Position numbers and translations under genes: made by a program
Assembly: GCA_016703105.1 (NCBI GenBank)
Contig: JADJCS010000020.1
Coordinates: 179,924-243,923 of the forward strand
Source of the DNA: Flavobacteriales bacterium
GTDB taxonomy: Bacteria > Bacteroidota > Bacteroidia > Flavobacteriales_F > PHOS-HE28
Direction: 5' to 3'
DNA: 64,000 bases
Notes under the pieces: generated by a model
The model's database searches: none
Seen by the model: only the letters and a program-made list of their open reading frames with translations
What the model was told of the DNA's origin: nothing
In this document: in pieces, positions 19,991-39,300 of the stretch
Numbering within the stretch: position 1 is the stretch's first letter
Layout of the letters: the number at the start of each line of letters is the position of its first letter

Positions 19991-20272
19991 ATGGCACTCA
20001 TCGACATCAAGGTTCCCAGTCCCGGCGAAAGCATCAGCGAAGTGCGCATTGCGCGTTGGCTCGTGAAGGACGGCGATGTGGTGAGCAAGGACCAGGTGCT
20101 CGGTGAGATCGACAGCGACAAGGCCACCTTGGAGTTGAGCGCTGAAGCCGAAGGCAAAGTGCAACTGCTCGCCAAGGAGGACCAGACCGTGAACGTCGGT
20201 GATGTGGTGGTGAGGATCGATACGGCTAACCGCTGCGCACGCTACCCCCGTAGCCAAGGCGATGCTCGATGA
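19991..20272 (+). CDS. sucB: Dihydrolipoyllysine-residue succinyltransferase (E2), N-terminal lipoyl domain fragment. The frame breaks near 20229-20232 and continues in ORF 20262..21131.
   Basis: Lipoyl domain '[35 protein letters not shown]'. The other frame, from ~20214, reads '[37 protein letters not shown]' (linker plus E3-binding domain). Confidence 0.8.
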
Positions 20273-21131
20273 CAAGGGCGTGAGCGCTGATAAAGTGAAG
20301 GGCAGTGGTCCCAACGGACGCATCACGAAGAGCGATGTCGCCGCTTATGTATCCGGTGGTGTGAGCGCCGATGCGATCGCCATGAACGGCTGGGGTGGAA
20401 AGCGCGACCAGAACCGCGTGAAGATGACCACGCTGCGCAAAAAGGTCGCTGAGCGCTTGGTCGCGGTGAAGAACCAGACCGCCATGCTCACCACCTTCAA
20501 CGAGGTGGACATGAGCGCTGTGATGACCCTGCGCGATAAGTACAAGGACAAGTTCAAGGAGCAGCACGGCGTGGGCCTCGGCTTCATGAGCTTCTTCACG
20601 AAGGCGGTTACCGAAGCGCTCCGCCTCTTCCCTCAAGTGAACGCGCACATCGACGGCGAGGAGATGATGATGCACGACTACGCCGACATCGGCATCGCGG
20701 TCAGCTCACCGAAAGGCCTGATGGTGCCCGTGGTGCGCAACGCCGAGAAGCTTTCGCTCGCGGAGATCGAATCGAAGATCAAGGAGCTCGCGGTGAAGGC
20801 CCGGGACGGCAAGCTCAGCATCGACGAGATGACCGGCGGCACCTTCACCATCACCAATGGTGGTGTGTTCGGCAGCATGCTCAGCACGCCGATCCTCAAT
20901 CCGCCGCAGAGCGCCATACTCGGCATGCACAACATCGTGGAGCGGCCCGTTGCTGTGAACGGCCAGGTCGTCATCCGCCCCATCATGTACGTAGCGCTCA
21001 GCTACGATCACCGCATCATCGACGGCAAGGAGAGCGTGAGCTTCCTGATGGCCGTGAAGCAGATGATCGAGGATCCGGACAAGATGGTCTTCGGCGGGAA
21101 GGATCCGGGGGAGGTGTTGTTGGGATTGTAG
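20262..21131 (+). CDS. sucB: E2 succinyltransferase, E3-binding plus catalytic domain (C-terminal 289 aa) of the frameshifted sucB
   Basis: Catalytic motif '[17 protein letters not shown]' (DHRxxDG active site); peripheral-subunit-binding domain at the N-terminus. Confidence 0.85.
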
Positions 21132-22328: not shown

Positions 22329-22427
22329 GCGCACAAGGTCGGCAGGAATGTGCGGATCTCTGGCAGCGTGCCCATTCGAATGCGGCACTGACGATCGTCA
22401 CTACTTGACCCGCGTTGTGCACCTACT

Positions 22428-23027
22428 TTGACAAGCTGGTCAAAATTCAAAGGAGTGAAAGTGCCCTTGTTCATCAAGCATGTTCTCCCGTTCGCTGCGA
22501 TGTACGCGGTGATGGTGGCGGCGGCGATCCTTTTGGATCGCGGTCTGCACGCCATGGGGTTGGACCATGTGGGGCGTTATCTGGGCCCTGCGGGAACGGC
22601 GTTCATCGCGCTCTCGTTCGTGTATTCATTGCGCAAGCGGAAGATCATCCACTCCGGGCCACCCAGGACCTACCTCATGGTGCATGAGTATCTCGCTTGG
22701 GCCGGCTCGGTGATGATCCTGGTGCATGCCGGCATCCATTTCAACGCCCGCCTTCCCTGGCTGGCCACCTATATGCTACTGATCAGCGTGGCGAGCGGGC
22801 TTGTGGGCAAATACCTCCTGAAGAGCGCCGGTCATTCTTTGGAAGAACGACGACAGGAATTGATCGCGAGCGGATCTACCACCCCTGAAGTGGACAAGGA
22901 GCTCTTCTTCGATTCGGTGACGGTGAACGCCATGAAGCAATGGCGCGTGGTCCACCTGCCCATCGCGTTCACGCTGGGCTTCCTTACCCTGTTGCACGTG
23001 ATCACCGTCCTCATGTTCGGCAAATGA
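22428..23027 (+). CDS. Small polytopic membrane protein with conserved His residues (cytochrome-b-like/DUF4405-like module). Paralogous to the N-terminal part of 25019..25879. Start uncertain: TTG 22428, GTG 22461 after AGGAG, or ATG 22500.
   Basis: 5 predicted TM helices. Shared motifs with the paralog: 'Y..RKR', 'L..HE.L...G....L.H', 'SG.(V/I)G(K/R)(Y/F)', 'W.V.HLP.A'. The stop overlaps the start of the next cytochrome gene. Confidence 0.6.
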   Translation: MTSWSKFKGVKVPLFIKHVLPFAAMYAVMVAAAILLDRGLHAMGLDHVGRYLGPAGTAFIALSFVYSLRKRKIIHSGPPRTYLMVHEYLAWAGSVMILVHAGIHFNARLPWLATYMLLISVASGLVGKYLLKSAGHSLEERRQELIASGSTTPEVDKELFFDSVTVNAMKQWRVVHLPIAFTLGFLTLLHVITVLMFGK

Positions 23028-24040
23028 AGAAGGTCATCATCCTTGCCTTGATCGCGGCGTTCATCGGGCTGGTGTACCTGTTCCCGCACAGCATGCTCGA
23101 GCCCGGGGAACTGGTGGAAGGACACCAGAAGACCCGCGACAATTGTTTCTCCTGCCATCAGCCCTTCGGAGGTCTGCCCAATGCCAAGTGCATCGTCTGT
23201 CACACGGTTGGCGAGATCGGGAAGGATACACTGCTGAACACGGGACCGACGCTTTTCCATGAGGCGCTCAGCGGTATGGAGTGCGTGGAATGCCATAGCG
23301 AGCACATGGGGCGGAACGCGGACCTGACCATGGGCGGCTTCGAGCACGCACTGGTCCCAGCAGCCATAGTGGAGGACTGCAACCGTTGCCATGCGAAACC
23401 AACGGACGAACTGCACACGCCGCTGCCCAACAAATGCGCGGCCTGCCATGATACGCAGGGCTGGAAACCCGCACGCGAATTCGACCATTCCTTGCTGTCG
23501 GCAGCGAGTAAAAGCGATTGTGCGAGTTGCCACCAGCGCCCCACCGATACGCTACATGAACGCATGAAGGGCAATTGTGCCAGCTGCCACTCGACCACCG
23601 CATGGAAGCCCGCAACCTTCGATCATGCCGCTTTGTCCGCTGCGGAGAAGGACCATTGCGCAACCTGCCACCAACCGCCCAAGGATGCTTTCCACCAAGG
23701 CACCAAGGACAATTGCGCCAGTTGCCATGGCACGAACGCATGGTCGCCTTCCACGTTCGATCACTCGGCGTACTTCCGATTGGATGGCGACCACAACGCG
23801 AAGTGCGCCACCTGTCACCAAGCCAACAACTACGGCAGCTACACCTGCTACGGTTGCCACGAGCATACACCGGGCAATATCATCGGCGAGCACCAGGAAG
23901 AGGGGATCACGAACATCACCGACTGCGTGCGATGCCACCGCAGCGGTGATGAGGATGACATCCGCATGGATGGACGGTCCGGAAGCGAAGGCGGGGAAGG
24001 TGCCCGCAAAGGCCGTGATCGTGAAGGGGAGGACGATTGA
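23024..24040 (+). CDS. Multiheme c-type cytochrome, 12 CxxCH motifs in 338 aa, signal-anchored
   Basis: N-terminal TM/signal 'MKKVIILALIAAFIGLVYLF'. Twelve CxxCH (CFSCH, CIVCH, CVECH, CNRCH, CAACH, CASCH x3, CATCH x2, CYGCH, CVRCH) with repeated '(A/T)WKP.(T/R).FDH' spacing. Confidence 0.85.
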   Translation: MKKVIILALIAAFIGLVYLFPHSMLEPGELVEGHQKTRDNCFSCHQPFGGLPNAKCIVCHTVGEIGKDTLLNTGPTLFHEALSGMECVECHSEHMGRNADLTMGGFEHALVPAAIVEDCNRCHAKPTDELHTPLPNKCAACHDTQGWKPAREFDHSLLSAASKSDCASCHQRPTDTLHERMKGNCASCHSTTAWKPATFDHAALSAAEKDHCATCHQPPKDAFHQGTKDNCASCHGTNAWSPSTFDHSAYFRLDGDHNAKCATCHQANNYGSYTCYGCHEHTPGNIIGEHQEEGITNITDCVRCHRSGDEDDIRMDGRSGSEGGEGARKGRDREGEDD

Positions 24041-24058
24041 ACCGTGCCCCTGACCTGA

Positions 24059-24140
24059 CGGGCTTCCCGACGGCCGTGAAGCAGATGATCGAGGACCCCA
24101 GCAAGATGGTCTTCGGCGACATGGTGCCGGGGGATTGCAT
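24059..24140 (+). other. Non-coding remnant homologous to the 3' end of sucB (~80 nt, about 80-85% identity to 21040-21122), within a spurious ORF
   Basis: Translation '[21 protein letters not shown]' versus the sucB C-terminus '[21 protein letters not shown]'. At nucleotide level 'ggccgtgaagcagatgatcgagga' is identical in both. Confidence 0.55.
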
Positions 24141-24316
24141 TTCAGGTCGTAGGTCTTGGGTGGTTCTCTGCTGCTCGGAGGCATCGGGCAGCCCCTGTGT
24201 CCTTCCGGGGATCACATGTTCAGGGACCGATCCGTCCGGTTCCGTCGAAGGGAAATCCCGTTCGGGGGATATTGTCATGGAACTGCCATGGCTTGCTTCC
24301 TACCTTCGAGGCCGGT

Positions 24317-24703
24317 ATGAAGAACTTCGCGGCTTACCTCCTCATTCTCCATGTGCTGTTGAGCACTTGGGCGCCGGGCGGGCTTGCGGAGGTGGCACGC
24401 CTTCCTTCCCTTCAGAGCCATTACGCGGAGCACTTCCTGGAAAGCGGTGGCACCATGGGGTGGGGTGAGTTCCTGAAACTCCACTTCGCGGACCCGGAAC
24501 ATGAGCGCCAGGATGCGGACAGGCACAGTGCCTTGCCCTTCCATGGTCCTTCCATGGCCATGCACATGTTCCTGCCGCCGGCAGCATCGGCCAGTGCGAT
24601 ACCCGCCGTGGTGACCCCCCACGTCCGTCCTGGGACCCTAGCGGCCGAAGTGGGCCAGTGGCCCGGGCGATCGGTGTTCCATCCGCCCAAGTCGATCGGT
24701 TGA
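24317..24703 (+). CDS. Small His-rich exported/membrane-anchored protein (128 aa), paralog A of a pair ending in '...GQW.GRSVFHPPKSIG'
   Basis: N-terminal hydrophobic helix 'MKNFAAYLLILHVLLSTWA'. Motifs 'LQSHYAEHF', 'HFADPEHE', 'LPFHG' and a C-terminus identical to that of 38911..39300. Confidence 0.55.
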   Translation: MKNFAAYLLILHVLLSTWAPGGLAEVARLPSLQSHYAEHFLESGGTMGWGEFLKLHFADPEHERQDADRHSALPFHGPSMAMHMFLPPAASASAIPAVVTPHVRPGTLAAEVGQWPGRSVFHPPKSIG

Positions 24704-25018
24704 GGCGCGTGGGCAGGAACCCCCTGCCGCGCGGACAAGAGCCACTGCTGCTCGGCGGGTTCTTGAACAGTCGTCAACCGTCAATTCCAGTTCATGCGGA
24801 CCCTTGGGGCCATAGTCTTCAACATCATCTTGCTGCAACGCTGGTCCATGGCGATCATTCCGGTGCACTCGGCGAATATCTGCGATCTGGCGCCATGAGA
24901 GGTCGGACCTTCCCCCATATCCCGGCGTATGATGTTCGTTGTGTGGGCCGCATCGGATGCATGTGCATCGTAGCGTCATATTGGGAACGACTGAACCTAC
25001 CGGCTTGACAGGACATTC

Positions 25019-25879
25019 ATGACGCGCACCACCCACACCCTCTTCATCGGAACCATGTCGGCCATCGTCGTCGTGGTGACCGTGTATCTCTCGTACGTCG
25101 GCTGGTCCTACTACCAATTGCCGCTGGAGGAGCGATTCTATCACCCGCAGCACAACTGGTTCAAGCCGAGCGGCGCCTACGGCCATGGCATCGGTATCCT
25201 CGGCACCTTCCTCATCTTGTTCGGTGTGGTGATCTACATCGCGCGCAAACGCTACAACTTCATGACGAAGCAGCTCCGGCTGAAGTACCTGCTGGAGTTC
25301 CACATTTTCCTCTGCACGCTGGGGCCGATCCTCATCCTCTTCCACACGGCCTTCAAATTCGGCGGACTGGTCTCAGTGGCGTTCTGGAGCATGGTGGCCG
25401 TGGTTGCCAGCGGCGTCATCGGGCGCTTCATCTACATCCAGATACCGCGCACCGTGGAGGGTCGCGAACTCAGCCTGAACGAGGTGAAGGGTATGCGAGC
25501 CAAACTGGTCGAGAACCTGAAGCAGAGCGTTGGCCTCGACGAGCAACTGATCCCGTTGATCGTCGGCACCACGGACGGCGAGGGTGCTGCCGCAAAGCGC
25601 AGATCGTTCATTTCCAGGTACCTCGATGAACGCAAGGCCGTCGGTGTGATCCGGTCATCCTTGAAGGCGAAGAACATGGCGCGTGAGGAGCAGGCATCCA
25701 TCATCCGCATGGTGAAAGAAGAGTTCGCCTTGTCCCACCGGATCGGTCGATTGCTCACCATGCAGAAACTGTTCAAGTACTGGCATGTGGCGCACCTGCC
25801 CTTCGCGTTGATCATGCTCATCGTGCTCATCATACACGTGGCCGTTACGTTGTCCTTCGGATACAAGTGGATCTTCTGA
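25019..25879 (+). CDS. Polytopic membrane protein: cytochrome-b-like module (paralog of 22428..23027) with an inserted ~110-aa cytoplasmic segment and a final TM helix
   Basis: Aligns with 22428..23027 ('ARKRYNF', 'LLEFHIFLCTLGPILILFHT', 'ASGVIGRFI', 'WHVAHLPFAL'). Its stop overlaps the next start (TGATG). Confidence 0.7.
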   Translation: MTRTTHTLFIGTMSAIVVVVTVYLSYVGWSYYQLPLEERFYHPQHNWFKPSGAYGHGIGILGTFLILFGVVIYIARKRYNFMTKQLRLKYLLEFHIFLCTLGPILILFHTAFKFGGLVSVAFWSMVAVVASGVIGRFIYIQIPRTVEGRELSLNEVKGMRAKLVENLKQSVGLDEQLIPLIVGTTDGEGAAAKRRSFISRYLDERKAVGVIRSSLKAKNMAREEQASIIRMVKEEFALSHRIGRLLTMQKLFKYWHVAHLPFALIMLIVLIIHVAVTLSFGYKWIF

Positions 25880-27210
25880 TGGAAGTGCTGATCGAACAAA
25901 TAGCGATCTACGGTTCGGTGCTCCTGCTCTGCGGGCTCACCATCTTCTTCTACATGCGCAGCCTCAAAAAGAAGTCCGCGATCGTGGAGAAGAAAGTGGC
26001 CAAGGCCAAGGAGGAAGGCATGTTCGAGCCGGTATCGCTGCATCCGTACATCGACCTGAACACCTGCATCGGTAGTGCAGCGTGCGTGGCCGACTGTCCG
26101 GAAAAGGACATCCTCGGCATCGTGGACGGCAAGGCCACGGTGATCCTCGCCAGCAACTGCGTGGGCCATGGCGCTTGCTTCCACGCCTGCCCGGTGCAGG
26201 CCATCTCCCTGCGCATCGGCACCGAGACGCGCGGCATCGATCTGCCGCACGTGGATCAGACTTTCGAGACCAACATCAAAGGGATCTACATCGCGGGGGA
26301 GCTCGGCGGCATGGGTTTGATCAGGAATGGTGTGGAACAGGGTAAGCAGGCCATGGCGAATATCGCGAGCGCCAAGAAGCCCAGGGCCGAAGGCGTGCTC
26401 GATGTGGTGATCATCGGCGCCGGACCGGCCGGTATCTCGGCCACGTTGGAAGCGAAAAAGCAAGGCTTGACCAGCGCCACGTTGGAGCAGGATTCGCTCG
26501 GCGGCACCGTGTACACGTTCCCACGCTCCAAGCTCGTGATGACCTCACCGATGGACCTTCCATTGCATGGCAAGGTGAAGTTGTACGACACCACGAAGGA
26601 TGAACTGCTCCAGCTCTGGCGGAAGGTGATCAGTGAGCACAAGATCGAGATCACCGAGAACACGAAAGTGGATGCCATCGTGCCACAGAAGGACGGGACG
26701 TTCAAGCTGTCCACCAACGTGGGCAAGGACTATATCTGCAACAATGTTCTGTTGGCCATCGGCCGCCGCGGAACACCAAGAAAATTGGGCATACCCGGCG
26801 AAGAGTCGACCAAGGTGGCCTACCGGTTATTGGAACCCGAGAACATCGCTGGCAAGAAAGTCGTGGTTGTGGGCGGTGGTGATGCCGGTGTGGAATCCGC
26901 GATGCTGCTGATGAACGACAATGAAGTGCTCTTGGTCAATCGCAACGAGAATTTCGCGGGTATCAAACCCAAGAACCGTGAAGCAGTGACCGCAGCCATC
27001 GATGCCGGGAAAATGAAGGCGGTCTACAAGGCCAACTTGGTATCCATAGCACCGGAATCCGTGTTGTGCAAAGTGGGTGAAGACACGCAGCAACTGCCGA
27101 ACGACCTCGTGTACATTTTCGCTGGTGGTGAACTCCCTACCGGCTTCTTGCAGAAGGCCGGCATTGAGATCACAAAACGGTTCGGACATATCGTGAAGAA
27201 GCACACGTGA
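25879..27210 (+). CDS. Membrane-anchored FeS-flavoprotein: N-terminal TM helix, 2x ferredoxin-like cluster motifs, and a thioredoxin-reductase-like FAD/NAD(P)-binding pyridine nucleotide-disulfide oxidoreductase domain
   Basis: TM 'IAIYGSVLLLCGLTIFFYM'. 'CIGSAACVADCP' and 'CVGHGACFHACP' (non-canonical Cx2(S/H)x2Cx3CP). Two Rossmann motifs 'VVIIGAGPAGISA' and 'VVVVGGGDAGVESA'. Confidence 0.85.
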   Translation: MEVLIEQIAIYGSVLLLCGLTIFFYMRSLKKKSAIVEKKVAKAKEEGMFEPVSLHPYIDLNTCIGSAACVADCPEKDILGIVDGKATVILASNCVGHGACFHACPVQAISLRIGTETRGIDLPHVDQTFETNIKGIYIAGELGGMGLIRNGVEQGKQAMANIASAKKPRAEGVLDVVIIGAGPAGISATLEAKKQGLTSATLEQDSLGGTVYTFPRSKLVMTSPMDLPLHGKVKLYDTTKDELLQLWRKVISEHKIEITENTKVDAIVPQKDGTFKLSTNVGKDYICNNVLLAIGRRGTPRKLGIPGEESTKVAYRLLEPENIAGKKVVVVGGGDAGVESAMLLMNDNEVLLVNRNENFAGIKPKNREAVTAAIDAGKMKAVYKANLVSIAPESVLCKVGEDTQQLPNDLVYIFAGGELPTGFLQKAGIEITKRFGHIVKKHT

Positions 27211-28829
27211 GATCCCTCGCGACATACCTGTTCGTTGTGCTATCGCTGGTGGCGATGACAAGTCGTGCGCAATTGTCGCCGGGGGATCTGACCACCGCGC
27301 ATGCCAACTTGGAGGGCATGAGCAACTGCACGCAGTGCCACGATCTGGGCAACAAGGTGACGAACGCCAAGTGCCTGGAGTGCCATAAGGAGATCAAGTC
27401 GCTCATCACGCAGAAAAAGGGCTACCACGCAAGCAAGGACGTGAAGGCGAAGGATTGCTTCACCTGCCACAGCGAGCACCATGGACGGAAGTTCGAGATG
27501 GTGCGCTTCGATGAGAAGACGTTCGATCACGGGTTGACGGGCTATGCCCTCACCGGCGCGCACAAGCCCGTTGACTGCCGCGAATGCCACCTACCGGACA
27601 ACATCGCGGACAAGGAGTTGAAGAAGCGGGACAAGACCTTCCTCGGCCTGGACCAGAAGTGCCTTTCCTGTCACGACGACTTCCATCAGAGCACGATGGA
27701 CAAGGATTGCCTGAAGTGCCATACCATGACGGCATGGAAGCCGGCCAGCGTGTTCGATCACGACAAGACCGATTTCCCGCTCAAGGGAAAGCACATCCCT
27801 GTGGATTGCAAGGAATGTCACGCCATCACCACCAAGAACGGCAAGCAGTTCCAAGCGTTCGGCGATGTGCCCCACACGGATTGCAAGGCGTGCCACGATG
27901 ATCCGCACAACGCGCACTTCACCAACGCTTGCGCCCAGTGCCACACGGAGAACGCCTTCTCGACCTTCGCAGGGAAGGACCGCTTCGACCACAACACCAC
28001 GCCGTTCAAGTTGAACGGCAAGCACAAGACCACCGATTGCTTTGAATGCCACAAGCGCACCAGCGATCCGCTAACGGTCTTCCAGGACCGGGCCGGGGTG
28101 GCGATGAACCAATGTGCCACGTGCCACAAGGACCAGCACGATGGGAAGTTCGGCACGGACTGCGCGAAGTGCCACCAGGAGAAAGGCTGGGTCGCCGTGA
28201 AGTCGATGGACTTCTTCGATCACAGTGTCACCGACTTCCCATTGCAGGGAAAGCACGTTGACGTGGATTGCAAGAAGTGTCACAAAGGGCGGTACACCGA
28301 TCCGATCGTTTTCGTGGCGTGCAATAGCTGCCATGCTGACTTCCACAAAGGCGAGTTCGCTGAGAACGGTGTGTCGCCGGATTGCGTGGAGTGCCACTTC
28401 CTCACCGATGGGTTCGATGTGAGCATGTATTCCTTGGAGCAGCACGCCACAACGAAATTCCCGCTGGACGGGGCGCATGTGGCCACACCCTGCTCCGAAT
28501 GCCATTTGAACGAGAAATGGAAGAAAGGTGCCGAGAATTCGACCGGAGAGAAGTGGAAATTCCGCGAACTGGCAATGGCCTGCGCTGATTGCCACGACAA
28601 CGTGCACGGTGAAGAGTTCGCACAGTCAGGTATTACGGATTGCAAGCGTTGCCACGTTACCGGCGACTGGTTCCCCAGCTTGTTCGATCATACCAAGACG
28701 GCTTTTCCGCTGGAAGGTGAACACAAGACCGTGGATTGCCGGGAGTGCCACAAGAACCCTGCGGAGGGCAATGAGAAATTGGGGTCGTTCAAGATCGCGA
28801 AGTACCAATGCATAGACTGCCACAAATAG
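27207..28829 (+). CDS. Multiheme c-type cytochrome, 20 CxxCH motifs in 540 aa (GTG start overlapping the upstream stop)
   Basis: Signal peptide 'MRSLATYLFVVLSLVAMTSRAQ'. 20 CxxCH, about one per 27 aa, with a recurring 'FDH...FPL.G.H..V.C..CH' unit. Confidence 0.9.
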   Translation: MRSLATYLFVVLSLVAMTSRAQLSPGDLTTAHANLEGMSNCTQCHDLGNKVTNAKCLECHKEIKSLITQKKGYHASKDVKAKDCFTCHSEHHGRKFEMVRFDEKTFDHGLTGYALTGAHKPVDCRECHLPDNIADKELKKRDKTFLGLDQKCLSCHDDFHQSTMDKDCLKCHTMTAWKPASVFDHDKTDFPLKGKHIPVDCKECHAITTKNGKQFQAFGDVPHTDCKACHDDPHNAHFTNACAQCHTENAFSTFAGKDRFDHNTTPFKLNGKHKTTDCFECHKRTSDPLTVFQDRAGVAMNQCATCHKDQHDGKFGTDCAKCHQEKGWVAVKSMDFFDHSVTDFPLQGKHVDVDCKKCHKGRYTDPIVFVACNSCHADFHKGEFAENGVSPDCVECHFLTDGFDVSMYSLEQHATTKFPLDGAHVATPCSECHLNEKWKKGAENSTGEKWKFRELAMACADCHDNVHGEEFAQSGITDCKRCHVTGDWFPSLFDHTKTAFPLEGEHKTVDCRECHKNPAEGNEKLGSFKIAKYQCIDCHK

Positions 28830-31531
28830 GGGCCCTCCTGCTGGTAGCTGTGCGGTTGAACGCGCAGTCGCCGCACGGCGAAGCCATGAAAATGGATTGC
28901 GCCCAGTGCCATGTACCGGCGGATTGGACGAGCATTTCGGACAGCATTCCGTTCGACCATGATCTGACGCGCTATCCGCTCGTAGGCACTCACGCACAGG
29001 TGGAGTGCAAGGCGTGCCACACAACGCTCGTCTTCGATGAGGCTCCCGACCAGTGCAGTGCCTGCCACACCGATATGCACGGCATGACCGTTGGCGATGA
29101 TTGTGCACGCTGCCACACACCCCGGAATTGGTTGGTTGATGCGATCCCTGAACTGCATGAGGAGAACGGGTTCCCCTTGATCGGTGCGCATGGCAATTTG
29201 AGCTGTGTGGACTGCCACACCTCGGAGACCGCGTTACGCTTTGACCGAATTGGCAATGACTGCATAAGTTGCCATGCGGATGATCTCCGGGCCACCCGGC
29301 ATCCGGACCACATCATGGCCGGATTTTCGGACGATTGCATCCAGTGCCATGATCCGTTGGGCTCTGGTTGGAACACGGAGATCGTCGATCACGACTTCTT
29401 CCCTCTCATTTTAGGGCACGCCATTTCCGACTGCGACCAGTGCCACACGGGAGGTTCTTTCTCCACCTCCTCGTCGGAGTGCGTCAGTTGCCACCAGAAC
29501 GACTTCTCAGGCACCGCCAACCCGGACCATACGGTTGCGGGATTCTCAACGGACTGCGCCACATGCCATACTATAAGCCCAGGGTGGACACCCGTGACCT
29601 ATGATCACAGTGGCTATCCATTGATCGGTGCGCACGCGTTGGTGCATGATTGTGACCAATGCCACAACGGCAATTACAACAACACGCCGAACACCTGCGA
29701 GGGCTGCCACCTGGCGGACTACAACGGCAGTGTCAACCCCAACCACACCGCTGCTGGCTTTTCCACGGATTGCGCGCAATGCCATGACGAGACGGCGTGG
29801 TCGCCGTCCGGTTATGATCACAACGGCTACCCACTGGTCGGGGCGCATACCACCGCAAGTTGCGATCAATGCCACAACGGCAATTACAACAACACGCCGA
29901 ACACCTGCGAGGGCTGCCACCTGGCGGACTACAATGGCAGTGCCAACCCCAACCACGCCGCTGCTGGCTTTTCCATGGATTGCGCGCAATGCCATGACGA
30001 GACGGCGTGGTCGCCGTCCGGCTATGATCACAACGGCTACCCGTTGGTCGGGGCGCATACCACCGCAAGTTGCGATCAATGCCACAACGGCAATTACAAC
30101 AACACGCCGAACACCTGCGAGGGCTGCCACCTGGCGGACTACAATGGCACCACCGCCCCGAACCACACTTCCGCACAGTTCACCACGGACTGCACGCAAT
30201 GCCACGACGAAGCGGCGTGGTCGCCGTCCTCATACGATCATGCGACCACGGGTTTCCCACTTACCGGCGGCCATGTCGGCGTTGACTGCGCGCAATGCCA
30301 CTCCAACGGTTACCAGGGTACACCGATCAACTGTGATGCCTGCCACATGCCGGACTACAATGGCACCACCAACCCGAACCATGCGGCGGCCCAGTTCCCT
30401 ACGGATTGCACGATCTGTCACGATGAGACCGCCTGGGGGAACTCGACCTTTGATCATGGCACGACCAGCTTCCCGTTGACCGGGGGCCACTCCGGCGTTG
30501 CCTGTACGCAATGCCATTCCAATGGGTACCAGGGTACACCGACCAACTGTGATGCCTGCCACATGCCGGACTACAATGGCACCACCGACCCGAACCATGC
30601 GGCGGCCCAGTTCCCCTCGGATTGCACGCAATGCCACGATGAGACAGCTTGGATCCCATCGAGCTATGACCACAACGGTTACCCACTGATGGGGTCGCAC
30701 GCCACGGTCAGCTGCGACCAATGTCACAATGGCAACTACAACAATACACCGAGCACATGCGACGGATGTCACATGCCGGACTATAACGGGACGACCAACC
30801 CGGACCATGCCGCAGCTCAGTTCCCTGTGGATTGTGCACTATGCCACGATGAGACGGCCTGGAACAATTCGACCTTCGATCATAGTACGACCGATTTTCC
30901 CCTGACAGGTGGCCATGCGGGCGTCAACTGCATCGCCTGCCATTCCAATGGCTATCAGAGTATACCGACCAACTGCGATGCCTGCCATATGCCGGATTAC
31001 AATGGCACCACCAACCCGGACCATGCCGCTGCCCAATTCCCCACCGACTGTGCGCAATGCCACAATGAAACTTCCTGGACCCCTTCTACGTTCGATCATA
31101 GCGCGACGGGCTTTGCGCTGACCGGAGGGCATGCGGGCGCGAGTTGTCTCCAGTGCCATTCCAACGGCTATCAAGGCACGCCGACGGATTGTGATGCGTG
31201 CCACATGGCGGATTTCAACGCCACCACCAACCCGGACCACCAGGCAGCCCAGTTCCCCACGGATTGCGCCCAGTGCCACAGTATATCGGCATGGTCGCCT
31301 TCCACGTTCGATCACGACGGGATGTACTTCCCGATCTATAGTGGAACGCACAACGGGGAGTGGAACACGTGCGTTGAATGCCACACCGACCCGAACGACT
31401 ATAGTGTGTTCAGTTGCATCGATTGCCATGAGCACGACGACCAAGCCCAGGTCGACAATGATCATAGCGGGGAGAACGGGTATTCGTACAACAGTGCCGC
31501 CTGCTTCAATTGCCATCCCAATGGGAATTGA
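28808..31531 (+). CDS. Giant multiheme c-type cytochrome, 37 CxxCH motifs in 907 aa; polymer of ~70-aa triheme (cytochrome-c7-like) modules
   Basis: Signal peptide 'MHRLPQIGALLLVAVRLNA'. 37 CxxCH counted. Repeated unit 'GYPLVGAH...CDQCHNGNYNNTP.TCEGCH.ADYNG..NPNH.AAGFS.DCAQCHDETAWSPS.YDHN'. Confidence 0.9.
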   Translation: MHRLPQIGALLLVAVRLNAQSPHGEAMKMDCAQCHVPADWTSISDSIPFDHDLTRYPLVGTHAQVECKACHTTLVFDEAPDQCSACHTDMHGMTVGDDCARCHTPRNWLVDAIPELHEENGFPLIGAHGNLSCVDCHTSETALRFDRIGNDCISCHADDLRATRHPDHIMAGFSDDCIQCHDPLGSGWNTEIVDHDFFPLILGHAISDCDQCHTGGSFSTSSSECVSCHQNDFSGTANPDHTVAGFSTDCATCHTISPGWTPVTYDHSGYPLIGAHALVHDCDQCHNGNYNNTPNTCEGCHLADYNGSVNPNHTAAGFSTDCAQCHDETAWSPSGYDHNGYPLVGAHTTASCDQCHNGNYNNTPNTCEGCHLADYNGSANPNHAAAGFSMDCAQCHDETAWSPSGYDHNGYPLVGAHTTASCDQCHNGNYNNTPNTCEGCHLADYNGTTAPNHTSAQFTTDCTQCHDEAAWSPSSYDHATTGFPLTGGHVGVDCAQCHSNGYQGTPINCDACHMPDYNGTTNPNHAAAQFPTDCTICHDETAWGNSTFDHGTTSFPLTGGHSGVACTQCHSNGYQGTPTNCDACHMPDYNGTTDPNHAAAQFPSDCTQCHDETAWIPSSYDHNGYPLMGSHATVSCDQCHNGNYNNTPSTCDGCHMPDYNGTTNPDHAAAQFPVDCALCHDETAWNNSTFDHSTTDFPLTGGHAGVNCIACHSNGYQSIPTNCDACHMPDYNGTTNPDHAAAQFPTDCAQCHNETSWTPSTFDHSATGFALTGGHAGASCLQCHSNGYQGTPTDCDACHMADFNATTNPDHQAAQFPTDCAQCHSISAWSPSTFDHDGMYFPIYSGTHNGEWNTCVECHTDPNDYSVFSCIDCHEHDDQAQVDNDHSGENGYSYNSAACFNCHPNGN
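29657..30150 (+). repeat. In-frame tandem DNA repeat, period 210 nt, ~2.4 copies at ~97-98% identity, inside the 37-heme cytochrome gene
   Basis: 'caatgccacaacggcaattacaacaacacgccgaacacctgcgagggctgccacctggcggactacaa' recurs at ~29657, ~29867 and ~30077. Confidence 0.85.
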
Positions 31532-31559
31532 ACGTACGACGCGGATCCGCAGCAAGGCC

Positions 31560-33029
31560 ATGGGACCATGGTTGCGAGGGATCTGTGTAGCGTTCCTTTC
31601 GGCCGTCGGGATGGTCCCGATCAATGTCCTGGCGCAATCGCCGCACGGCGAGGCGATGAAGATCGATTGTGCCGCATGCCACGTACCTGACGGTTGGAGC
31701 GCCATGCGGGACTCGCTGACGTTCGATCACGGGCAGACCCATTTTCCATTGATAGGCGTCCATGACCAGGTGGACTGCAGGTCCTGCCACGCTTCATTGG
31801 TCTTCAGTGAGGCCCCGCCGGACGATTGCATTTCGTGCCACACGGATGTACACAGTATGTCCGTGGGTGACGATTGTGCCCGGTGCCATACGCCGGTGAG
31901 CTGGCTGGTCGACGACATACCTGAGCTGCACGAGCAGAACGGGTTCGCTTTGGTCGGGGTGCATAGCAATTTGAGCTGTGTGGATTGTCACATTTCGGAC
32001 AACGGCAACACATTCATCAGGCTTGGCAATGATTGCATCAATTGCCACCAAGCGGATTACCTCGCCACCAAGAGCCCTGATCATATGTTGGCGGGATTCT
32101 CCGCGAACTGCGTGGAGTGCCATGATCCACTTGGCTTCGGCTGGGCGACCGATCTCGTTGACCACGATTTCTTTCCGCTCACTCTGGGGCACGACATCGG
32201 TGATTGCGCGCGCTGCCATACCACCGGCGATCTCTCGGCCGTATCGCCCGAATGCGTGAGCTGCCATCAGCAGGACTACAACAGCACAACGAACCCGAAC
32301 CACGCGGCTTCCGGATTCTCCACCGATTGCGCCTCCTGCCATACGACCGATCCGGGGTGGACACCAGCGACGTTCGATCACGATGCACAGTTCTTCCCCA
32401 TCTACAGCGGATCGCACAACGGCCAATGGAGCGCGTGCACGGACTGCCACACGAACCCCAATGACTTCTCGGTGTTCACATGCACCGGATGCCACGTGAA
32501 CCCCCAGACCGACGGCGACCACAATGGCATGCCCGGTTATGTCTATGAGAGCAATGCCTGCCTGGCCTGCCACCCGAACGGGGATGCCTTCGGCTTTGAC
32601 CACAACACCACCGATTTCCCCCTCCAAGGGGGTCACGTCGGCGTTAACTGCACCGAGTGCCACGCGAATGGCTATGCGGGCACGCCCACCAACTGCGACG
32701 CGTGCCACATGGACGATTACAACGGCACCACCAACCCGAACCATAGCGGCGCCCAGTTCCCCACGGATTGCGCGCAATGCCACAATGAAACCGCGTGGAC
32801 CCCGGCCAACTTCGATCACGACAACCAGTACTTCCCGATCTATAGCGGGAACCACAACGGCGAATGGAACACCTGTTCTAGTTGCCACACCAACAGCAAC
32901 GACTACAGTGTCTTCAGCTGCATTATCTGCCACGACGACGAGGCACAATTAGCCGACGATCACAGCGGTGAGAACGGATACGCGTTCAACAGCAATGCAT
33001 GCTTCTCATGCCATCCCAGCGGGAACTAG
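31560..33029 (+). CDS. Multiheme c-type cytochrome, 19 CxxCH motifs in 489 aa; paralog of the 37-heme protein with shared N- and C-terminal modules
   Basis: Start at the in-frame ATG just after the upstream stop. Signal peptide 'MGPWLRGICVAFLSAVGMVPINVLAQSPHGEAMKIDCAACH' parallels '..AQSPHGEAMKMDCAQCH' of the upstream gene. The C-terminal '..YSVFSCIICHDDEAQLADDHSGENGYAFNSNACFSCHPSGN' is also shared. Confidence 0.85.
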   Translation: MGPWLRGICVAFLSAVGMVPINVLAQSPHGEAMKIDCAACHVPDGWSAMRDSLTFDHGQTHFPLIGVHDQVDCRSCHASLVFSEAPPDDCISCHTDVHSMSVGDDCARCHTPVSWLVDDIPELHEQNGFALVGVHSNLSCVDCHISDNGNTFIRLGNDCINCHQADYLATKSPDHMLAGFSANCVECHDPLGFGWATDLVDHDFFPLTLGHDIGDCARCHTTGDLSAVSPECVSCHQQDYNSTTNPNHAASGFSTDCASCHTTDPGWTPATFDHDAQFFPIYSGSHNGQWSACTDCHTNPNDFSVFTCTGCHVNPQTDGDHNGMPGYVYESNACLACHPNGDAFGFDHNTTDFPLQGGHVGVNCTECHANGYAGTPTNCDACHMDDYNGTTNPNHSGAQFPTDCAQCHNETAWTPANFDHDNQYFPIYSGNHNGEWNTCSSCHTNSNDYSVFSCIICHDDEAQLADDHSGENGYAFNSNACFSCHPSGN

Positions 33030-33031
33030 CG

Positions 33032-34630
33032 ATGGCTATGCGAACCCTCACGCTTTGGTCCCTTCTCCTGGTCGTATCCGGTTGCTTCGGGCAGGACGCG
33101 CTGCAGGGTGAGGTCACCTTCATCACGGCGAACAACGTGTATGTCAACTTCGGAACTACGGCCGCCATCGCGATCGGGGATACCCTTCACGTGGTGAAGG
33201 GTACAGAGGTCAGTCCCTGCTTGGTGGTGACCACCAAGTCCACCACCTCATGCCTCTGTACCGTCGTTGCGGGGTGCAAGGTCCAGAAGAACGACAAGGT
33301 CGTGCTTAGGACCCCGCATCCCGTTGTGCCGCCTTCGGGTCGGTCGACCGGGAAGGCGGAGAAAGGTCCCGCCGCCGAGAAGGTCCGTGACAATGGCGAA
33401 CGTTATCGAGGCCGGCTTTCGGCGACGAGCTATAGTACGATCCCATCGGCGAGGGAGAACGATCACCGGGTGATGTACCGCCTTTCGGCCAATGCGGACC
33501 GTATCGGCGGCTCCAAGTTCTCCGCCGAGACCTACTTGAACTACCGGCAGTTGTTCCCGGCGGGGGAGAGCAAGTATCCGCAGCGCACGGAGTTTTTCAA
33601 CGTGTATAGCTTGGCGGTGAACTATGCCCCGGACTCCACTTTCTCGATCACGCTCGGGAGGAGGGTCAATAACAGCGCATCCTCCTTGGGGGCCATTGAT
33701 GGATTGCAGGTGGAGAAGCACTTCGGCGGTTTCTTCACGGGCGTGATCGCCGGGTCCCGGCCTGATATCATCGATTACGGCTTGAACGTCGGCCTGCTTG
33801 AATACGGGGGCTACCTGGGATATGCCCGGAGCGCGGAGAAGTTGGATACGCGAACGACATTGGGGCTTTTGCAGCAGACCAATGCGGGACCGGTCGATAG
33901 GAGGTACGCCTACTTTCAGCATAGCTCCACGTTCTGGAACGACCTCAACATCTTCGGTTCCTTTGAGCTCGATCTCTACGGTTTGGTGGATGGTGCACCT
34001 ACCACCAAGGCCCGACTGACCAACTTCTATCTCTCTTCCCGCTATCGGTTCGGAAAGCGGGTCGATCTGTTCGCTTCCTATGATGCCCGGAGGCGTATCG
34101 TTTACTACGAAACCTATCGGAGCGATATTGAGATGCTGCTGGACGATGATGACGCGATGCAGGGTGCCCGCTTGCGGTTGAACGTGCGTCCGATCAAGGA
34201 TATCAGTTTGAGCGCGAGCTACAGCAAGCGGTTCGAAAGTGATGGAGGGAACAGGTCGGACAATATCAACGGCTACATCACCTTTTCCAAGGTCCCTGCC
34301 ATTGGTGGGCGCTGGTCTGTGCAGGTGAACCGGAACACATCGAGCTATGTGAGGAGCGATGTACTATCCGTGCGGCATTCGCGGATGCTCGTCAAGAAGC
34401 GGATGAACGCGAGCGTATATTTCCGTATGGCGAACTACAGGTACTCCACCCTCCTTGATGTGGAGGGGGTTCCCATGGAACGGCACCAGAAGTTCTATGG
34501 CGTCGATCTCTCCTACAACATCCTGCCCAAGTTGGTGTTCAGTGTGTTGGGCGAACTCTCGACCATGGGCGATGAACAGAACTACAGAGTGAACGTGAGC
34601 ATCACAAAACGTTTCGACAGTAAGAGATAG
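33032..34630 (+). CDS. Predicted outer-membrane beta-barrel protein (candidate porin partner of the cytochromes)
   Basis: Signal peptide 'MAMRTLTLWSLLLVVSGCFG'. ~530 aa with many alternating-hydrophobicity stretches ('YSLAVNYAPDSTFSITLG', 'VDLSYNILPKLVFSVLGEL', 'YRVNVSITKRF'). Starts 3 nt after the cytochrome stop. Confidence 0.55.
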   Translation: MAMRTLTLWSLLLVVSGCFGQDALQGEVTFITANNVYVNFGTTAAIAIGDTLHVVKGTEVSPCLVVTTKSTTSCLCTVVAGCKVQKNDKVVLRTPHPVVPPSGRSTGKAEKGPAAEKVRDNGERYRGRLSATSYSTIPSARENDHRVMYRLSANADRIGGSKFSAETYLNYRQLFPAGESKYPQRTEFFNVYSLAVNYAPDSTFSITLGRRVNNSASSLGAIDGLQVEKHFGGFFTGVIAGSRPDIIDYGLNVGLLEYGGYLGYARSAEKLDTRTTLGLLQQTNAGPVDRRYAYFQHSSTFWNDLNIFGSFELDLYGLVDGAPTTKARLTNFYLSSRYRFGKRVDLFASYDARRRIVYYETYRSDIEMLLDDDDAMQGARLRLNVRPIKDISLSASYSKRFESDGGNRSDNINGYITFSKVPAIGGRWSVQVNRNTSSYVRSDVLSVRHSRMLVKKRMNASVYFRMANYRYSTLLDVEGVPMERHQKFYGVDLSYNILPKLVFSVLGELSTMGDEQNYRVNVSITKRFDSKR

Positions 34631-34631
34631 G

Positions 34632-35414
34632 ATGATGAACAAGAAGATCGGATACATGTACGCATCGATCATCTGTGGGGTCATGGTGACCGCATGCGAT
34701 GACGGTCCCAAGACCATTGCCTCGGAAAAGTCCAATGAGGGCACTACCGGGGTCTTCTCCGGAAATGCGGAGGATGCGTCCCAAGGGGCCGCTATGACCG
34801 GCGCAGGGGTGGGGGCGGACGTGCACTCGATCACCGCGCTCGAAGTGCTTCCAACGACGAAGTACGTATACGTGCGTGCGAAGGAGGGCGATGAGGAGTT
34901 CTGGATCGCGTCCACCAAACAGGAGGTCGTGGTGGGCAGAACCTACTTCTACCGTGGCGGACTTCTGAAGACCGATTTTCAGAGCAAGGAGTACAACAGA
35001 ACGTTCGAGAAACTGTATTTGATCTCGCAGCTCGTTCCTTCCGACCATGGCAGCCAAGGTTCGGGTATGCCACCATCCACGCCGTTCACTCCTACCCAGC
35101 AGGAGCCGGCATCGCCGATCATCAGCGAAGGATCCGTGAAGATCTCCGAACTATTGGCGGACCCGAAGAAGTTCGCCGGAAGGTCCGTTCAGGTCAGTGG
35201 CACCTGCACCAAGGTGAACCCGAACATCATGGGTCGTAATTGGGTCCATTTGAACGATGGCACCAACAAGGACCAAGACCTTGTCGTTACCACGGACGTG
35301 CTGATCCCGGAGGGCCATGCCGTAACCATGGTGGGCACCGTGGCGCTGGACAAGGACTTTGGCGCGGGGTATCAGTACGGTATCCTCTTGGAAGGCGGTA
35401 CGCTGGTGAAGTAG
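34632..35414 (+). CDS. Lipoprotein (lipobox 'VTAC'), possibly with an OB-fold-like C-terminal domain; last gene of the cytochrome operon
   Basis: 'MMNKKIGYMYASIICGVMVTACDDG' is a signal peptide with a lipobox Cys. Starts 2 nt after the beta-barrel stop. Confidence 0.55.
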   Translation: MMNKKIGYMYASIICGVMVTACDDGPKTIASEKSNEGTTGVFSGNAEDASQGAAMTGAGVGADVHSITALEVLPTTKYVYVRAKEGDEEFWIASTKQEVVVGRTYFYRGGLLKTDFQSKEYNRTFEKLYLISQLVPSDHGSQGSGMPPSTPFTPTQQEPASPIISEGSVKISELLADPKKFAGRSVQVSGTCTKVNPNIMGRNWVHLNDGTNKDQDLVVTTDVLIPEGHAVTMVGTVALDKDFGAGYQYGILLEGGTLVK

Positions 35415-38400: not shown

Positions 38401-38596
38401 AGATGACGTGCTGTGCCGAACTGGTGCCGAAGTCGTTCTCCAAGAAGGTGCCTACGCCGATCGAGGCGGCGAACAATAGGATGTACAGCCCCGCAGCGCG
38501 GGTGGTGAACATTGGCGCGAGAACCTTCTGCACACCGGTTCGGAGGGTGATGAGCATCTTCTTCGTTCGGGATGAGGTTGCCATGGATCGTGTCAT
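35435..38596 (-). CDS. ccsBA: System II cytochrome c biogenesis protein, fused CcsB(ResB)-CcsA (CcsBA) heme exporter/lyase
   Basis: 1053 aa. N-terminal ResB-like TMs plus a large periplasmic domain. C-terminal CcsA with the Trp-rich WWD motif 'WGRYWGWDAKETWALVT' and conserved His. This fused form is typical of Bacteroidota. Confidence 0.9.
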   Translation of the reverse strand: MTRSMATSSRTKKMLITLRTGVQKVLAPMFTTRAAGLYILLFAASIGVGTFLENDFGTSSAQHVIYKSSWFSLLLVLFAITIMVNVVRFKMVRQRKWALLTFHLAMIVILIGAGVTRYFGYEGIMHIRENGSSNSFLSAETYLLFQVRQGEQVYHFDEPVLFSTLGNNDWRGSYLIGDDLIEAEVQEFIPNPKQLLEEAPNGKPTIKVVFAGMGGREEYYVSAGETRRYHNVLFNFTEALLPEAVNIAYRNDSLLIKSDRALVQTVMATRTTDTLYPREAYHPLRLRSMYNDGTNGFVFGDFKEQAVVKLGSEGPKVKNESLTALRMVVKVNGTAQELMVYGQKGMAGRPAVAHADDMDVAISYGAKDIPLPFSLKLYDFIMERYPGTNSATSYASEVQLIDERADVKEDHRIFMNNVLDHDGYRFFQSSFDQDELGTYLSVNHDFWGTWISYIGYILLTIGMIMSLLSKKSRFHKLSENIEMMRRTTTVPVLVLALLSAPTLAQAQKVIDQRNNLNIVDAAHAERFSRIVVQDHRGRMKPMHTLTREVMRKVYRKERINDLSADQVVLGMLASSKDWIAVPMIKLGEHQKIHEQLGVPGPLAAYEDFFDSNGDYVLRDEVSRVNAMQPIDRGVYEKDLMKVDERLNIMNMVLGGGMLKIIPVPGDPNNTWVGARSDGHEHGNDPVADRFFSTYVHALREAMSTGNYALPDKLLNELSAYQKEQGAAVVPSTARIGAEILLNELNVFNRLALFYTSLGVAFLFLMFFSVFKPAVDLRKVQKVLLVLLLFGFFLHTIGLGLRWYVSERAPWSNGYESMIYIAWTTVLAGILFTRRSFGGSAATMILAATVLLVAMLSYLDPEITPLVPVLRSYWLTIHVSLEAGSYGFLMLGAVIGLINLILMIFLSKHNEKRIHKVVKEMSYLSEMTLIGGLFMISIGTYLGGVWANESWGRYWGWDAKETWALVTILVYAFILHMRLIPKLQGLYAYNVASLFGLATVIMTYYGVNYYLSGLHSYAAGDPVPVPQWVYIGVMVLVIIGLIAFVRKRAFRLFS

Positions 38597-38910
38597 AGGG
38601 GTGTTCGGCTCGACCGTCGATGGGCTTGTACTTCTTTGGAACAGTTCGTTGCGTCGTTGCTACTGCGGATCATGCCTGATCGGGAACCGCCCATCTGGAT
38701 GCGAAGTTGCGCTGGTTCCATCGTTGGACCATGACGACCTTGCGGACCACCCTCGCCGAATATGCTTCGCACCACATGCATGCTGGGAGGTAAGGATGGA
38801 ACCAATGATGAAGTAGCCATGGGAACGACCGAAGTGAATTGAACGGAACACGACCGTCGCGCTTACGTCAGAGGCGACAAGTCATCACGGTGCGGCGGCA
38901 CCGCGATCGA

Positions 38911-39300
38911 TCATCCGATCGACTTCGGCGGGTGGAATACGCTGCGCGATGCCCACTGGCCCACGCAGTCATCCTTCACGGAAGCAGGACCCACGCGTAG
39001 CAAACCCCCAAGCATAGGACCGGGCAACGCAAGGGAATGACCGGTGAATAGCGGAGAATGTCCGCTCGCGCCATGGAACGGCAGCTTCGCATGTTGGGCG
39101 GGTTCGCTCGCTTCGTGCCCGGGGTCGCAGTAGTGCAGAAGAACGAACTCGACCACGGTCAACTTCCCGTCAGCACGCTGTTGATGTTCCGTGTAATGCT
39201 CCTGAAGCGCAGGCGCCCTGAAGACCTCTATCAGCCCGGCCGATGCAAAGGCCATCAGAAAGACGTGGGCCGCGAATAGCGAGGCGGTGAGACTGCGCAC
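38911..39300 (-). CDS. Small His-rich protein, paralog A' of 24317..24703 (GTG start inferred by alignment with the paralog)
   Basis: '..LQEHYTEHQ..', 'HYCDPGHE', 'LPFHG', and a C-terminal 'GQWASRSVFHPPKSIG' identical to the paralog. Lengths match (129 vs 128 aa). Confidence 0.5.
   Translation of the reverse strand: MRSLTASLFAAHVFLMAFASAGLIEVFRAPALQEHYTEHQQRADGKLTVVEFVLLHYCDPGHEASEPAQHAKLPFHGASGHSPLFTGHSLALPGPMLGGLLRVGPASVKDDCVGQWASRSVFHPPKSIG

Follow-up and report, generated by a model that had tools for sequence, protein, structure and literature searches.

What do two small His-rich proteins do on either side of a multihaem cytochrome system? The question is raised by a 64,000-nucleotide (nt) stretch of contig JADJCS010000020.1 from a Flavobacteriales bacterium (assembly GCA_016703105.1; the whole of this DNA is called the window), in which one such gene, copy A, stands near the cytochrome genes and its paralogue, copy B, near ccsBA. 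A first-pass annotation, made from the letters alone, had suggested that the pair might act as chaperones or accessory factors in cytochrome maturation. Comparison of the window with related contigs and loci (L001, L016 and so on) and with the wider protein family points us, with moderate confidence, to a different answer: A and B would be His-type CutF-like leader peptides, which tie the translation of the genes behind them to periplasmic metal. We read them as leader peptides rather than as stable chaperones because of a PP motif close to the C-terminus, a linker of fixed length, and RNA pairing between the end of the open reading frame (ORF) and the next start codon.

Translation yields both ORFs where they had been annotated (Table 1), and the two proteins align over their full length with 41% identity (BLASTP, E 8e-29), as expected of the paralogues they were taken for. 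Their last 11 residues, RSVFHPPKSIG, are the same; the identical 11-residue C-terminus thus stands, while the string originally quoted for it, SVFHPPKSIG, counts 10 residues. The G+C content of the window is 60.6%, and that of third codon positions (GC3) is 0.74 and 0.68 in the two ORFs, a little lower than in the ORFs that look most coding, and for this reason a plain filter on GC3 misses A and B. Orthologues of A with 59–100% identity occur in at least five Flavobacteriales metagenome-assembled genomes (MAGs), several of them from wastewater, and in many metagenome contigs. Orthologues of B are present in L009, L010, L016–18 and L031, and a contig of MAG Go_SlAct_bin_145, nearly identical to the window, has both copies, with an A protein 97% identical to ours. 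In pairwise comparisons, the ratio of nonsynonymous to synonymous substitution (dN/dS) is ~0.2 overall and 0.06–0.2 within the His domain. The annotation had made the reality of the ORFs depend on conservation in related genomes; with these orthologues and this dN/dS, A and B are genuine genes under purifying selection. Their genomic context was also described correctly. A gene for a cytochrome with 12 CxxCH motifs (23024..24040) precedes A, and an operon starting at 25019 (membrane protein, Fer4–FAD oxidoreductase, multihaem cytochromes) follows it as the next annotated gene after 315 nt; B lies 314 nt from ccsBA, on the same strand.

The family to which the two proteins belong is large. A word-indexed search returned only 11 close relatives; an exhaustive HMMER profile search over 1.84 billion cluster representatives (50% identity clusters) returned 1,240 representatives at the cut-off of E ≤ 1e-3, nearly all of them 110–145 amino acids (aa) long. 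The named organisms are all Bacteroidota (Flavobacterium, Crocinitomicaceae, Ferruginibacter, Hydrotalea, Flavihumibacter and Panacibacter), and every member with a source name is annotated as 'hypothetical protein'. The pair had been left without a named family, and our scans agree: no Pfam or NCBIfam model matched A, B or ten distant members at E ≤ 1. Among 142 diverse members, the only Pfam families matched by more than one sequence were DUF2946 (the CutF family), DUF6660 and DUF7471, all sub-threshold, which hints weakly at a CutF-like identity. DUF6660 (PF20365) comprises small Bacteroidota proteins with an N-terminal hydrophobic segment, a Cys/His-rich middle and WQPPK-like tails, encoded upstream of TonB-dependent receptor or czc genes. 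The A/B family has His motifs and not the Cys of DUF6660, which had no match in A, B or the ten distant members and matched two of the 142, sub-threshold, at E 0.1. In the PDB, neither a profile search of the sequences nor a Foldseek search with the AlphaFold model gave a match.

Conservation divides the protein into segments of very different character (Table 1). The N-terminus is basic and is followed by ~16 hydrophobic residues and a Pro/Gly break; the family mean of Kyte–Doolittle hydropathy is 2.0–2.4 over residues 6–16 and AlphaFold places a helix at residues 2–18, confirming the hydrophobic helix that had been noticed there. A second transmembrane segment, which would put the tail in the cytoplasm, was rejected, as the N-terminal segment alone is hydrophobic. 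The domain at residues 25–76 carries the family motifs ELxKxPxLxxHYxEH, FLxLHY and LPF at 2.0 bits per column and is modelled as four short helices with a predicted local distance difference test score (pLDDT) of 89–98. Across the 142 diverse members H35, H39, H56 and P74 are invariant and F52, Y57, L73, P123 and P124 occur in at least 90%, while H62, H70 and H76 are conserved within the subfamily. The His motifs picked out in the first reading are therefore real, and the conserved His residues suggest metal binding, as it had proposed.

The linker that follows varies freely in sequence while its length is held. It has 0.57 bits per column and a dN/dS of 0.2–0.9 and is modelled as coil (pLDDT 58–67), and the distance from HYxxH to PP is 87–95 aa in 90% of 260 sequences. 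Beyond it lies the best conserved segment of the protein, SVFHPPK, at 2.88 bits per column. The tail S[IV][FW][QH]PP[KR] is found in 164 of 175 family sequences, and PP stands 2–4 residues from the C-terminus in 247 of 260 (residues 123–124 of 128 in A). Recognition of the C-terminus by a PDZ-type domain was judged unlikely, since the last 1–3 residues vary.

The conserved tail continues, at the nucleotide level, into a leader RNA. In the subfamily with the RSVFHPPK tail the usual next gene encodes a ~590-aa protein secreted by the type IX secretion system (T9SS), and the spacer from the small gene to the next start codon is 87–92 nt at all A- and B-type loci. The spacer is better conserved than the protein, with 78–80% nucleotide identity where the proteins are 60–70% identical. 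RNAalifold, run on ten A-type sequences, predicts a long-range helix (helix 1) that pairs the last codons and the stop (xC GGT TGA) with TCAACCGx at positions −17 to −8 of the next ATG and encloses two hairpins, one of them of 11 bp. The predicted pairs were counted against controls with slid partners and with shuffled sequences. Paired cells make up 93.5%, compared with 33–49% when partners are slid, and nine pairs are changed on both sides (compensatory), compared with 3.6 in shuffles, a number that none of 500 shuffles reached. Most of the covariation sits in the hairpins. The non-coding arm of helix 1, TCAACC, is invariant in 10 divergent loci, and the terminal codons are fixed as xxC GGT/TGT TGA, the last sense codon being GGT or TGT and the stop always TGA. 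Synonymous divergence (pS) over residues 111–128 is lower than elsewhere in the gene.

B-type loci have an analogous closing helix of different sequence. The predicted pairing of the 3′ end of the ORF with the next initiation region exceeds that of dinucleotide shuffles in 14 of 14 loci, czc-linked members included, with a shuffle fraction of at most 0.10 in 11 of the 14. Fisher's method over about ten independent lineages, an arithmetic on these shuffle fractions, gives roughly 2e-4. What stands is a conserved leader RNA with covarying pairs, in which the end of the ORF pairs with the initiation region, and the synonymous-site constraint and the stop-to-start pairing indicate a function in cis.

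Other elements were sought in the same regions. An Rfam scan of 20000–42000 found no known RNA family within the leaders, and no intrinsic terminator was found downstream of A or B, the single plus-strand match near A (24110–24133) lying upstream. Rho-type rut tracts were considered, but the C-rich tracts turned out to be remnant signal-peptide coding sequence. A single element shared across the 315-nt regions after A and B was also rejected, as these regions align poorly when compared directly; what the two loci really share downstream is the 90-nt leader, together with the beginning of a gene that is otherwise deleted.

That gene is the one for the ~590-aa T9SS protein, which both loci have lost in the window and in L004/L009, L023/L031 and L010, its closest relatives. 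Comparison with L001, L005 and L007 by blastn, tblastn and sequence comparison shows that the leader of 90 nt and the opening codons of the T9SS gene were kept, so that the next start codon lies 90 nt after A in a remnant ORF and 90 nt after B in a relay ORF (Table 1). Relatives in which the gene is intact include L001 (10480–12243, together with 12240–13463) and L016 (8476–10323). The protein combines a signal peptide and a T9SS C-terminal domain with a Cys-rich middle and repeats of a C..DGCY.L.M.D...DGW module; its A-type and B-type versions share 65% identity. It matched no Pfam family, with just a weak F5/8 type C match, and its PDB sequence matches, to 'cell surface protein', were weak. 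Behind it lies the membrane protein, Fer4–FAD and multihaem operon at A-type loci (multihaem linkage in at least 14 loci) and ccsBA at the B-type loci L016–18; in all, B-type genes stand upstream of ccsBA in the window, L009, L010, L016–18 and L031. The deletions at the two paralogous loci appear parallel and are common to MAG Go_SlAct_bin_145 and the metagenome contigs L023 and L031. Immediately upstream of B, the same strand encodes two large T9SS-sorted proteins (39513–41627 and 41534–43150, −), the first with a C-terminal region homologous to the C-terminal part of the deleted protein (tblastn E ~1e-21).

What became of the start codon that was left behind differs between the two loci. At A it opens the remnant ORF, which ends 120 nt before the gene for the 286-aa membrane protein. 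At B the frame runs on to an ATGA overlap with the start of ccsBA, at 38593–38596 (−) in the window, 10962–10965 in L009 and ~10677–10680 in L010. It is open to the same ATGA over 75 codons in the window, 82 in L010 and 161 in L009, the last despite a 255-nt insertion, and its composition is like that of non-coding DNA (GC3 0.49). To judge from this comparison of frames, the open relay suggests selection for an upstream ORF (uORF) that passes regulated initiation on to ccsBA by translational coupling, and ccsBA is the likely final regulated target of B.

How this arrangement might work is suggested by CutF. Rhodobacter capsulatus CutF is exported co-translationally through the signal recognition particle (SRP) and Sec (PMC9973294), and its stall has been placed at PPP inside the tunnel, with EF-P involved (bioRxiv 10.1101/2025.02.05.636593). 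Under a published rule-based definition (PMC9973294), a protein counts as CutF-like if it has fewer than 150 aa, an N-terminal signal peptide and PP among its last 15 residues, and if its gene has a neighbour on the same strand within 1000 nt. Both A and B are shorter than 150 aa, have PP in the last 15 residues and are followed by a same-strand gene within 1000 nt; their N-terminal hydrophobic segment could be a cleaved signal or an uncleaved anchor, which hydropathy does not distinguish. A ligand motif is present as the invariant H35, H39 and H56, the predicted metal ligands, and an intergenic RNA that shields the next start, within reach of a ribosome at the end of the leader, is present in the predicted fold; masking of the next initiation region by intergenic RNA structure is thus a likeness to CutF, as far as prediction goes. 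The published survey comprised 5,334 CutF-like proteins, many in Bacteroidota, with neighbours dominated by OEP, ACR_tran and CzcB (PMC9973294), and the A/B family too stands on the same strand directly upstream of metal-related envelope genes (ACR_tran genes of the resistance–nodulation–division (RND) type, OEP, CzcB). The CutF-like class and its mechanism are already published, and A and B are not categorically new.

They nevertheless differ from CutF in several ways. The ligands are His only (HYxEH, LHY) instead of CxxxC, the tail is [FW][QH]PP[KR] instead of PPP, and the closing helix, unlike that of CutF, is built from the ORF's own last codons and stop. Two His-only CutF-like clusters have been reported that adjoin HupE/UreJ (PMC9973294), whereas the A/B family adjoins CzcA/CzcB, and the neighbours of the window's subfamily (the T9SS protein, multihaem cytochromes and ccsBA) are targets that PMC9973294 does not mention. 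A second system with a similar layout is CruR of Bordetella pertussis. As summarised in PMC9973294, this upstream ORF (PMC9426467) has a Pro-rich C-terminus and, across an intergenic region longer than here (162 nt), controls an envelope gene downstream in response to metal, much as proposed for A and B; it differs from the model proposed here in that its control is reported to act by Rho-dependent termination, independently of a signal sequence, whereas no terminator-like element was found downstream of A or B.

By analogy with CutF, the N-terminal hydrophobic segment would target the nascent chain co-translationally to the Sec translocon, and the His-rich domain (residues 25–76) would emerge into the periplasm while the ribosome decodes the last codons. 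The variable linker, ~47 residues after H76, would span the ribosomal tunnel and the translocon. With the ribosome at P123/P124, sensor residues 25–76 would then all be outside and EVGxWxGRSVFHPP would lie in the upper tunnel. Metal on the His domain would alter the dwell time of the ribosome at [FW][QH]PP[KR], and a ribosome on the codons from PP to the stop would melt the long-range helix, free the next initiation region and set the level of downstream translation. In relatives, the usual target would be the ~590-aa T9SS gene that heads the multihaem operon (A type) or precedes ccsBA (B type); in the window, the regulated start codon would open a short ORF instead, coupled at B to ccsBA through the ATGA. 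We infer export, metal binding and which metal it might be, stalling at PP and the direction of regulation from this analogy. Plausible ligand metals are Fe, Mn, Zn, Co or Cu, given the His/Glu/Asp ligands, a VIT1 gene next door, the link of relatives to czc genes and a report (reference 6 in PMC9973294) that cytochrome c assembly is sensitive to periplasmic Cu.

Several observations weigh against this reading. In helix 1 of the A type, five of nine pairs never vary and one is compensatory; because the helix is mostly invariant, its support comes mainly from conservation and from the analogous B-type helix. The folding statistics of single loci are individually modest, with shuffle fractions of 0.01–0.43. 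The pause motif [FW][QH]PP[KR] is neither the PPP of CutF nor RAPP-like, and PPK and PPR contexts are reportedly weak stallers. Initiation in Bacteroidota is mostly not led by Shine–Dalgarno pairing, so that shielding of a ribosome-binding site may work differently. DUF2946 (PF11162), the CutF family, had no match in A or B at E ≤ 1 and matched two of the 142 members, sub-threshold, with a best E of 0.03. Finally, with its normal target deleted, A may be only loosely coupled to what lies downstream, because 120 nt separate the remnant ORF from the gene for the 286-aa membrane protein.

The neighbourhoods of the wider family, counted in 13 distant members that were looked up or recovered, bear on the choice between explanations. 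Eleven of the 13 lie directly upstream, on the same strand, of a CzcA-like RND gene, whose ACR_tran domain is often fused to OEP; in ten of these the next gene is one for membrane fusion (CzcB/CusB-like or otherwise of HlyD type), and in the one on L035 it is an OEP gene. Contig L021 has two family members (6001–6384 and 10945–11334), each ahead of its own CzcA-like RND operon. The remaining two distant members head a gene for a DUF2231 membrane protein (L011:8001–9062) and a thioredoxin-like/ApbE/DUF4266/DUF3570 cluster (L040:5001–8283), which are candidates for further targets of the leader family. The annotation had proposed to check whether homologues stand systematically beside ccsBA or multihaem cytochrome genes; among the distant members looked up they do not, most of these being upstream of CzcA/CzcB-type genes. 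From the neighbourhoods of the distant members and of the subfamily it therefore follows that the family serves envelope operons in general as their first gene, and that most of these operons are metal-related.

A position upstream of CzcA/CzcB genes is also that of czcI, which makes it natural to consider A and B as stable periplasmic or membrane-anchored His-rich metal proteins acting in trans, be it as a CzcI-like quencher, a metallochaperone or a buffer, with the PP tail as a docking motif and the RNA as ordinary coupling. CzcI of Cupriavidus metallidurans (pMOL30, L038:15176–15523) is reported to be a stable protein of the periplasm that quenches CzcCBA activity (PMC10127602). It resembles the family in its small size (115 aa), its N-terminal hydrophobic segment and its His/Cys-rich motifs, and, as with most distant members, its gene immediately precedes a czc RND operon. 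A confidently modelled His domain (pLDDT >89) under strong purifying selection would likewise suit a protein with a stable function. A and B, however, are without an RND partner (no ACR_tran gene was found adjoining either), yet keep the PP tail even more strictly, and CzcI has no PP motif (PMC9973294). Homology to CzcI was rejected, hhalign of the 142-sequence profile giving a probability of 7%. A linker free in sequence and fixed in length, with PP at a fixed 2–4 codons from the stop, is hard to fit to a docking motif whose terminal residues vary, and both the synonymous constraint and the pairing between stop region and following start indicate action in cis. We consider a trans-acting metal protein unlikely, though it is the likeliest of the alternatives.

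The RNA evidence that speaks for a cis-acting leader would be shared by leader ORFs without a ligand, in which secretion monitoring or plain coupling operates through a PP pause and an RNA helix and no metal is sensed. SecM, VemP, MifM and the RAPP-type (RQH) substrates have the same anatomy: an N-terminal export signal, an arrest motif few codons before the stop, an upstream position and cis control via mRNA structure (PMC10987492, PMC12992588). Their arrest motifs, however, are [RQH][AG]PP or unrelated, as opposed to [FW][QH]PP here, and a RAPP-like core ([RQH][AG]PP, RAGP or RAPG) is absent from the tail V-F-H-P-P-K. They monitor Sec or YidC and control sec or yidC genes; A, B and their relatives are not found upstream of secA, secDF or yidC, the neighbours being RND efflux genes, T9SS cargo, cytochromes and ccsBA. 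Above all, monitoring substrates conserve the signal and the arrest motif and have no conserved ligand-binding domain, whereas here only the PP motif is better conserved than the 50-residue domain that holds the invariant His residues. We regard a leader without a ligand as improbable.

More improbable still are dedicated haem- or iron-binding chaperones for System II maturation (CcsBA) and multihaem cytochromes, the role first proposed: the B-type genes upstream of ccsBA, the A-type genes upstream of the multihaem operon and the capacity of His residues to ligate haem would fit it, but the 11 distant members are linked to metal efflux pumps and not to cytochromes, a T9SS-secreted protein is the usual adjoining gene in the subfamily, A contains no Cys, searches for thioredoxin-like or known Ccs accessory signatures (ResA/CcsX, CcdA) gave no Pfam or NCBIfam match and the helical model no PDB or Foldseek match, and such chaperones would leave the C-terminal PP motif and the leader RNA without a role.

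Of the CutF-like reading, the part that concerns the history of the window is put forward more tentatively than the leader function itself: two paralogues may have been recruited in one Flavobacteriales lineage from a large His-type family of periplasmic-metal-sensing leaders, to control a multihaem operon and ccsBA, the latter via the relay uORF. Three features appear to be new: a Bacteroidota family of great size, with His-only motifs, that no database model covers; a leader RNA into which the ORF's own stop region is built; and the recruitment of two paralogues to a multihaem-cytochrome operon and to ccsBA, relay ORF included. If the reading is right, it would be the first link of nascent-chain metal sensing to cytochrome c biogenesis. 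Nascent-chain ligand sensing via ribosome dwell, experimentally shown for Rhodobacter CutF only, would then be widespread in Bacteroidota. The His-only ligand chemistry, the different pause motif and the stop-region leader RNA would extend the CutF mechanism, and cytochrome c maturation and a giant multihaem-cytochrome system would join metal detoxification among its regulated targets. It would also offer a testable handle on the control of putative extracellular electron transfer in uncultured wastewater Flavobacteriales. More than 1,000 'hypothetical proteins' would gain a working annotation, and caution would be advised with such short ORFs and 90-nt leaders, which would have to be treated as regulatory parts of the operons behind them.

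Table 1. Positions, strands and supporting evidence of features at the A and B loci (window coordinates)
Feature	Position	Strand	Evidence and remarks
Copy A, gene for a putative CutF-like leader protein, 128 aa	24317..24703	+	ATG start at 24317; orthologues; dN/dS
A residues 1–24, N-terminal hydrophobic segment, putative Sec signal peptide or signal anchor	24317..24388	+	hydropathy, AlphaFold
A residues 25–76, helical His-rich domain (HYAEH, LHF, DPEHE, LPFH), putative metal-sensing part	24389..24544	+	conservation, pLDDT
A residues 77–110, linker, variable in sequence, fixed in length	24545..24646	+	conservation, dN/dS, model
A residues 111–125, EVGQWPGRSVFHPPK, putative C-terminal arrest-like motif	24647..24691	+	motif counts; PP codons 24683–24688
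Helix 1, 5′ arm: final base of the Ser codon plus ATC GGT TGA	24694..24703	+	RNAalifold, pair counts, single-sequence minimum free energy
Leader hairpin of 11 bp, directly after the A stop codon	24706..24733	+	5 compensatory pairs; 98% of cells paired
Second leader hairpin, outer stem CAAGA / TCTTG	24736..24765	+	compensatory changes in 3 of 5 pairs
Helix 1, 3′ arm, TCAACCGTCA	24774..24783	+	positions −20 to −11 relative to the ATG at 24794
Remnant ORF, 34 codons (MRTLGAIVFNIILLQ...), start of the deleted ~590-aa T9SS gene	24794..24898	+	blastn, tblastn, sequence comparison
Downstream operon: 286-aa membrane protein, Fer4+FAD oxidoreductase, 20-, 37- and 19-haem cytochromes, 543-aa and 260-aa unknown proteins	25019..35414	+	Pfam, CxxCH counts, synteny
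ccsBA, ResB + CcsA fusion, 1053 aa	35435..38596	-	Pfam
Relay ORF, 75 codons, from the retained T9SS-gene start codon to the ATGA overlap with the ccsBA start	38593..38820	-	frame comparison
B long-range helix, 3′ arm, ACUUCGGUCG	38826..38835	-	B-type folds; ends 5 nt upstream of the ATG at 38820
B long-range helix, 5′ arm, Pro-Pro-Lys codons (CGCCGAAGU)	38922..38930	-	B-type folds
Copy B, gene for a putative CutF-like leader protein, 129 aa	38911..39300	-	GTG start at 39300; PP codons 38926–38931

Some further observations concern the surroundings of the two genes. An invariant GTCGA(A) lies ~70–95 nt upstream of A- and B-type start codons, at ~24225–24245 (+) and ~39355–39375 (−) in the window, and is seen also in L001, L004–L010 and L016. 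A-type loci have a second conserved block, ATTGTCATGG, ~45 nt upstream of the start. These blocks may be a promoter or a regulator-binding site; the upstream conserved motif fits neither the sigma-70 consensus nor an obvious Bacteroidota −33/−7 consensus.

The E2 component of 2-oxoglutarate dehydrogenase appears as two overlapping ORFs on the plus strand, a 93-aa lipoyl domain (19991–20272) and a 289-aa E3-binding/catalytic part (20262–21131), which could mean that the gene is truly split or that a frameshift or a fault of assembly has broken it. A divergent neighbour of the cytochrome cluster fuses a VIT1 iron/manganese transporter domain to a rubrerythrin-like N-terminal domain (21204–22388, −), and a VIT1 neighbour is found near the B-type locus in L018 as well. 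The cluster itself (22428–35414, +) is large and resembles an extracellular-electron-transfer system in a Flavobacteriales genome. It comprises His-containing membrane proteins of 199 and 286 aa without a Pfam match, the Fer4+FAD oxidoreductase, four cytochromes (12, 20, 37 and 19 CxxCH motifs), a protein of 543 aa that weakly matches porins and a 260-aa protein.

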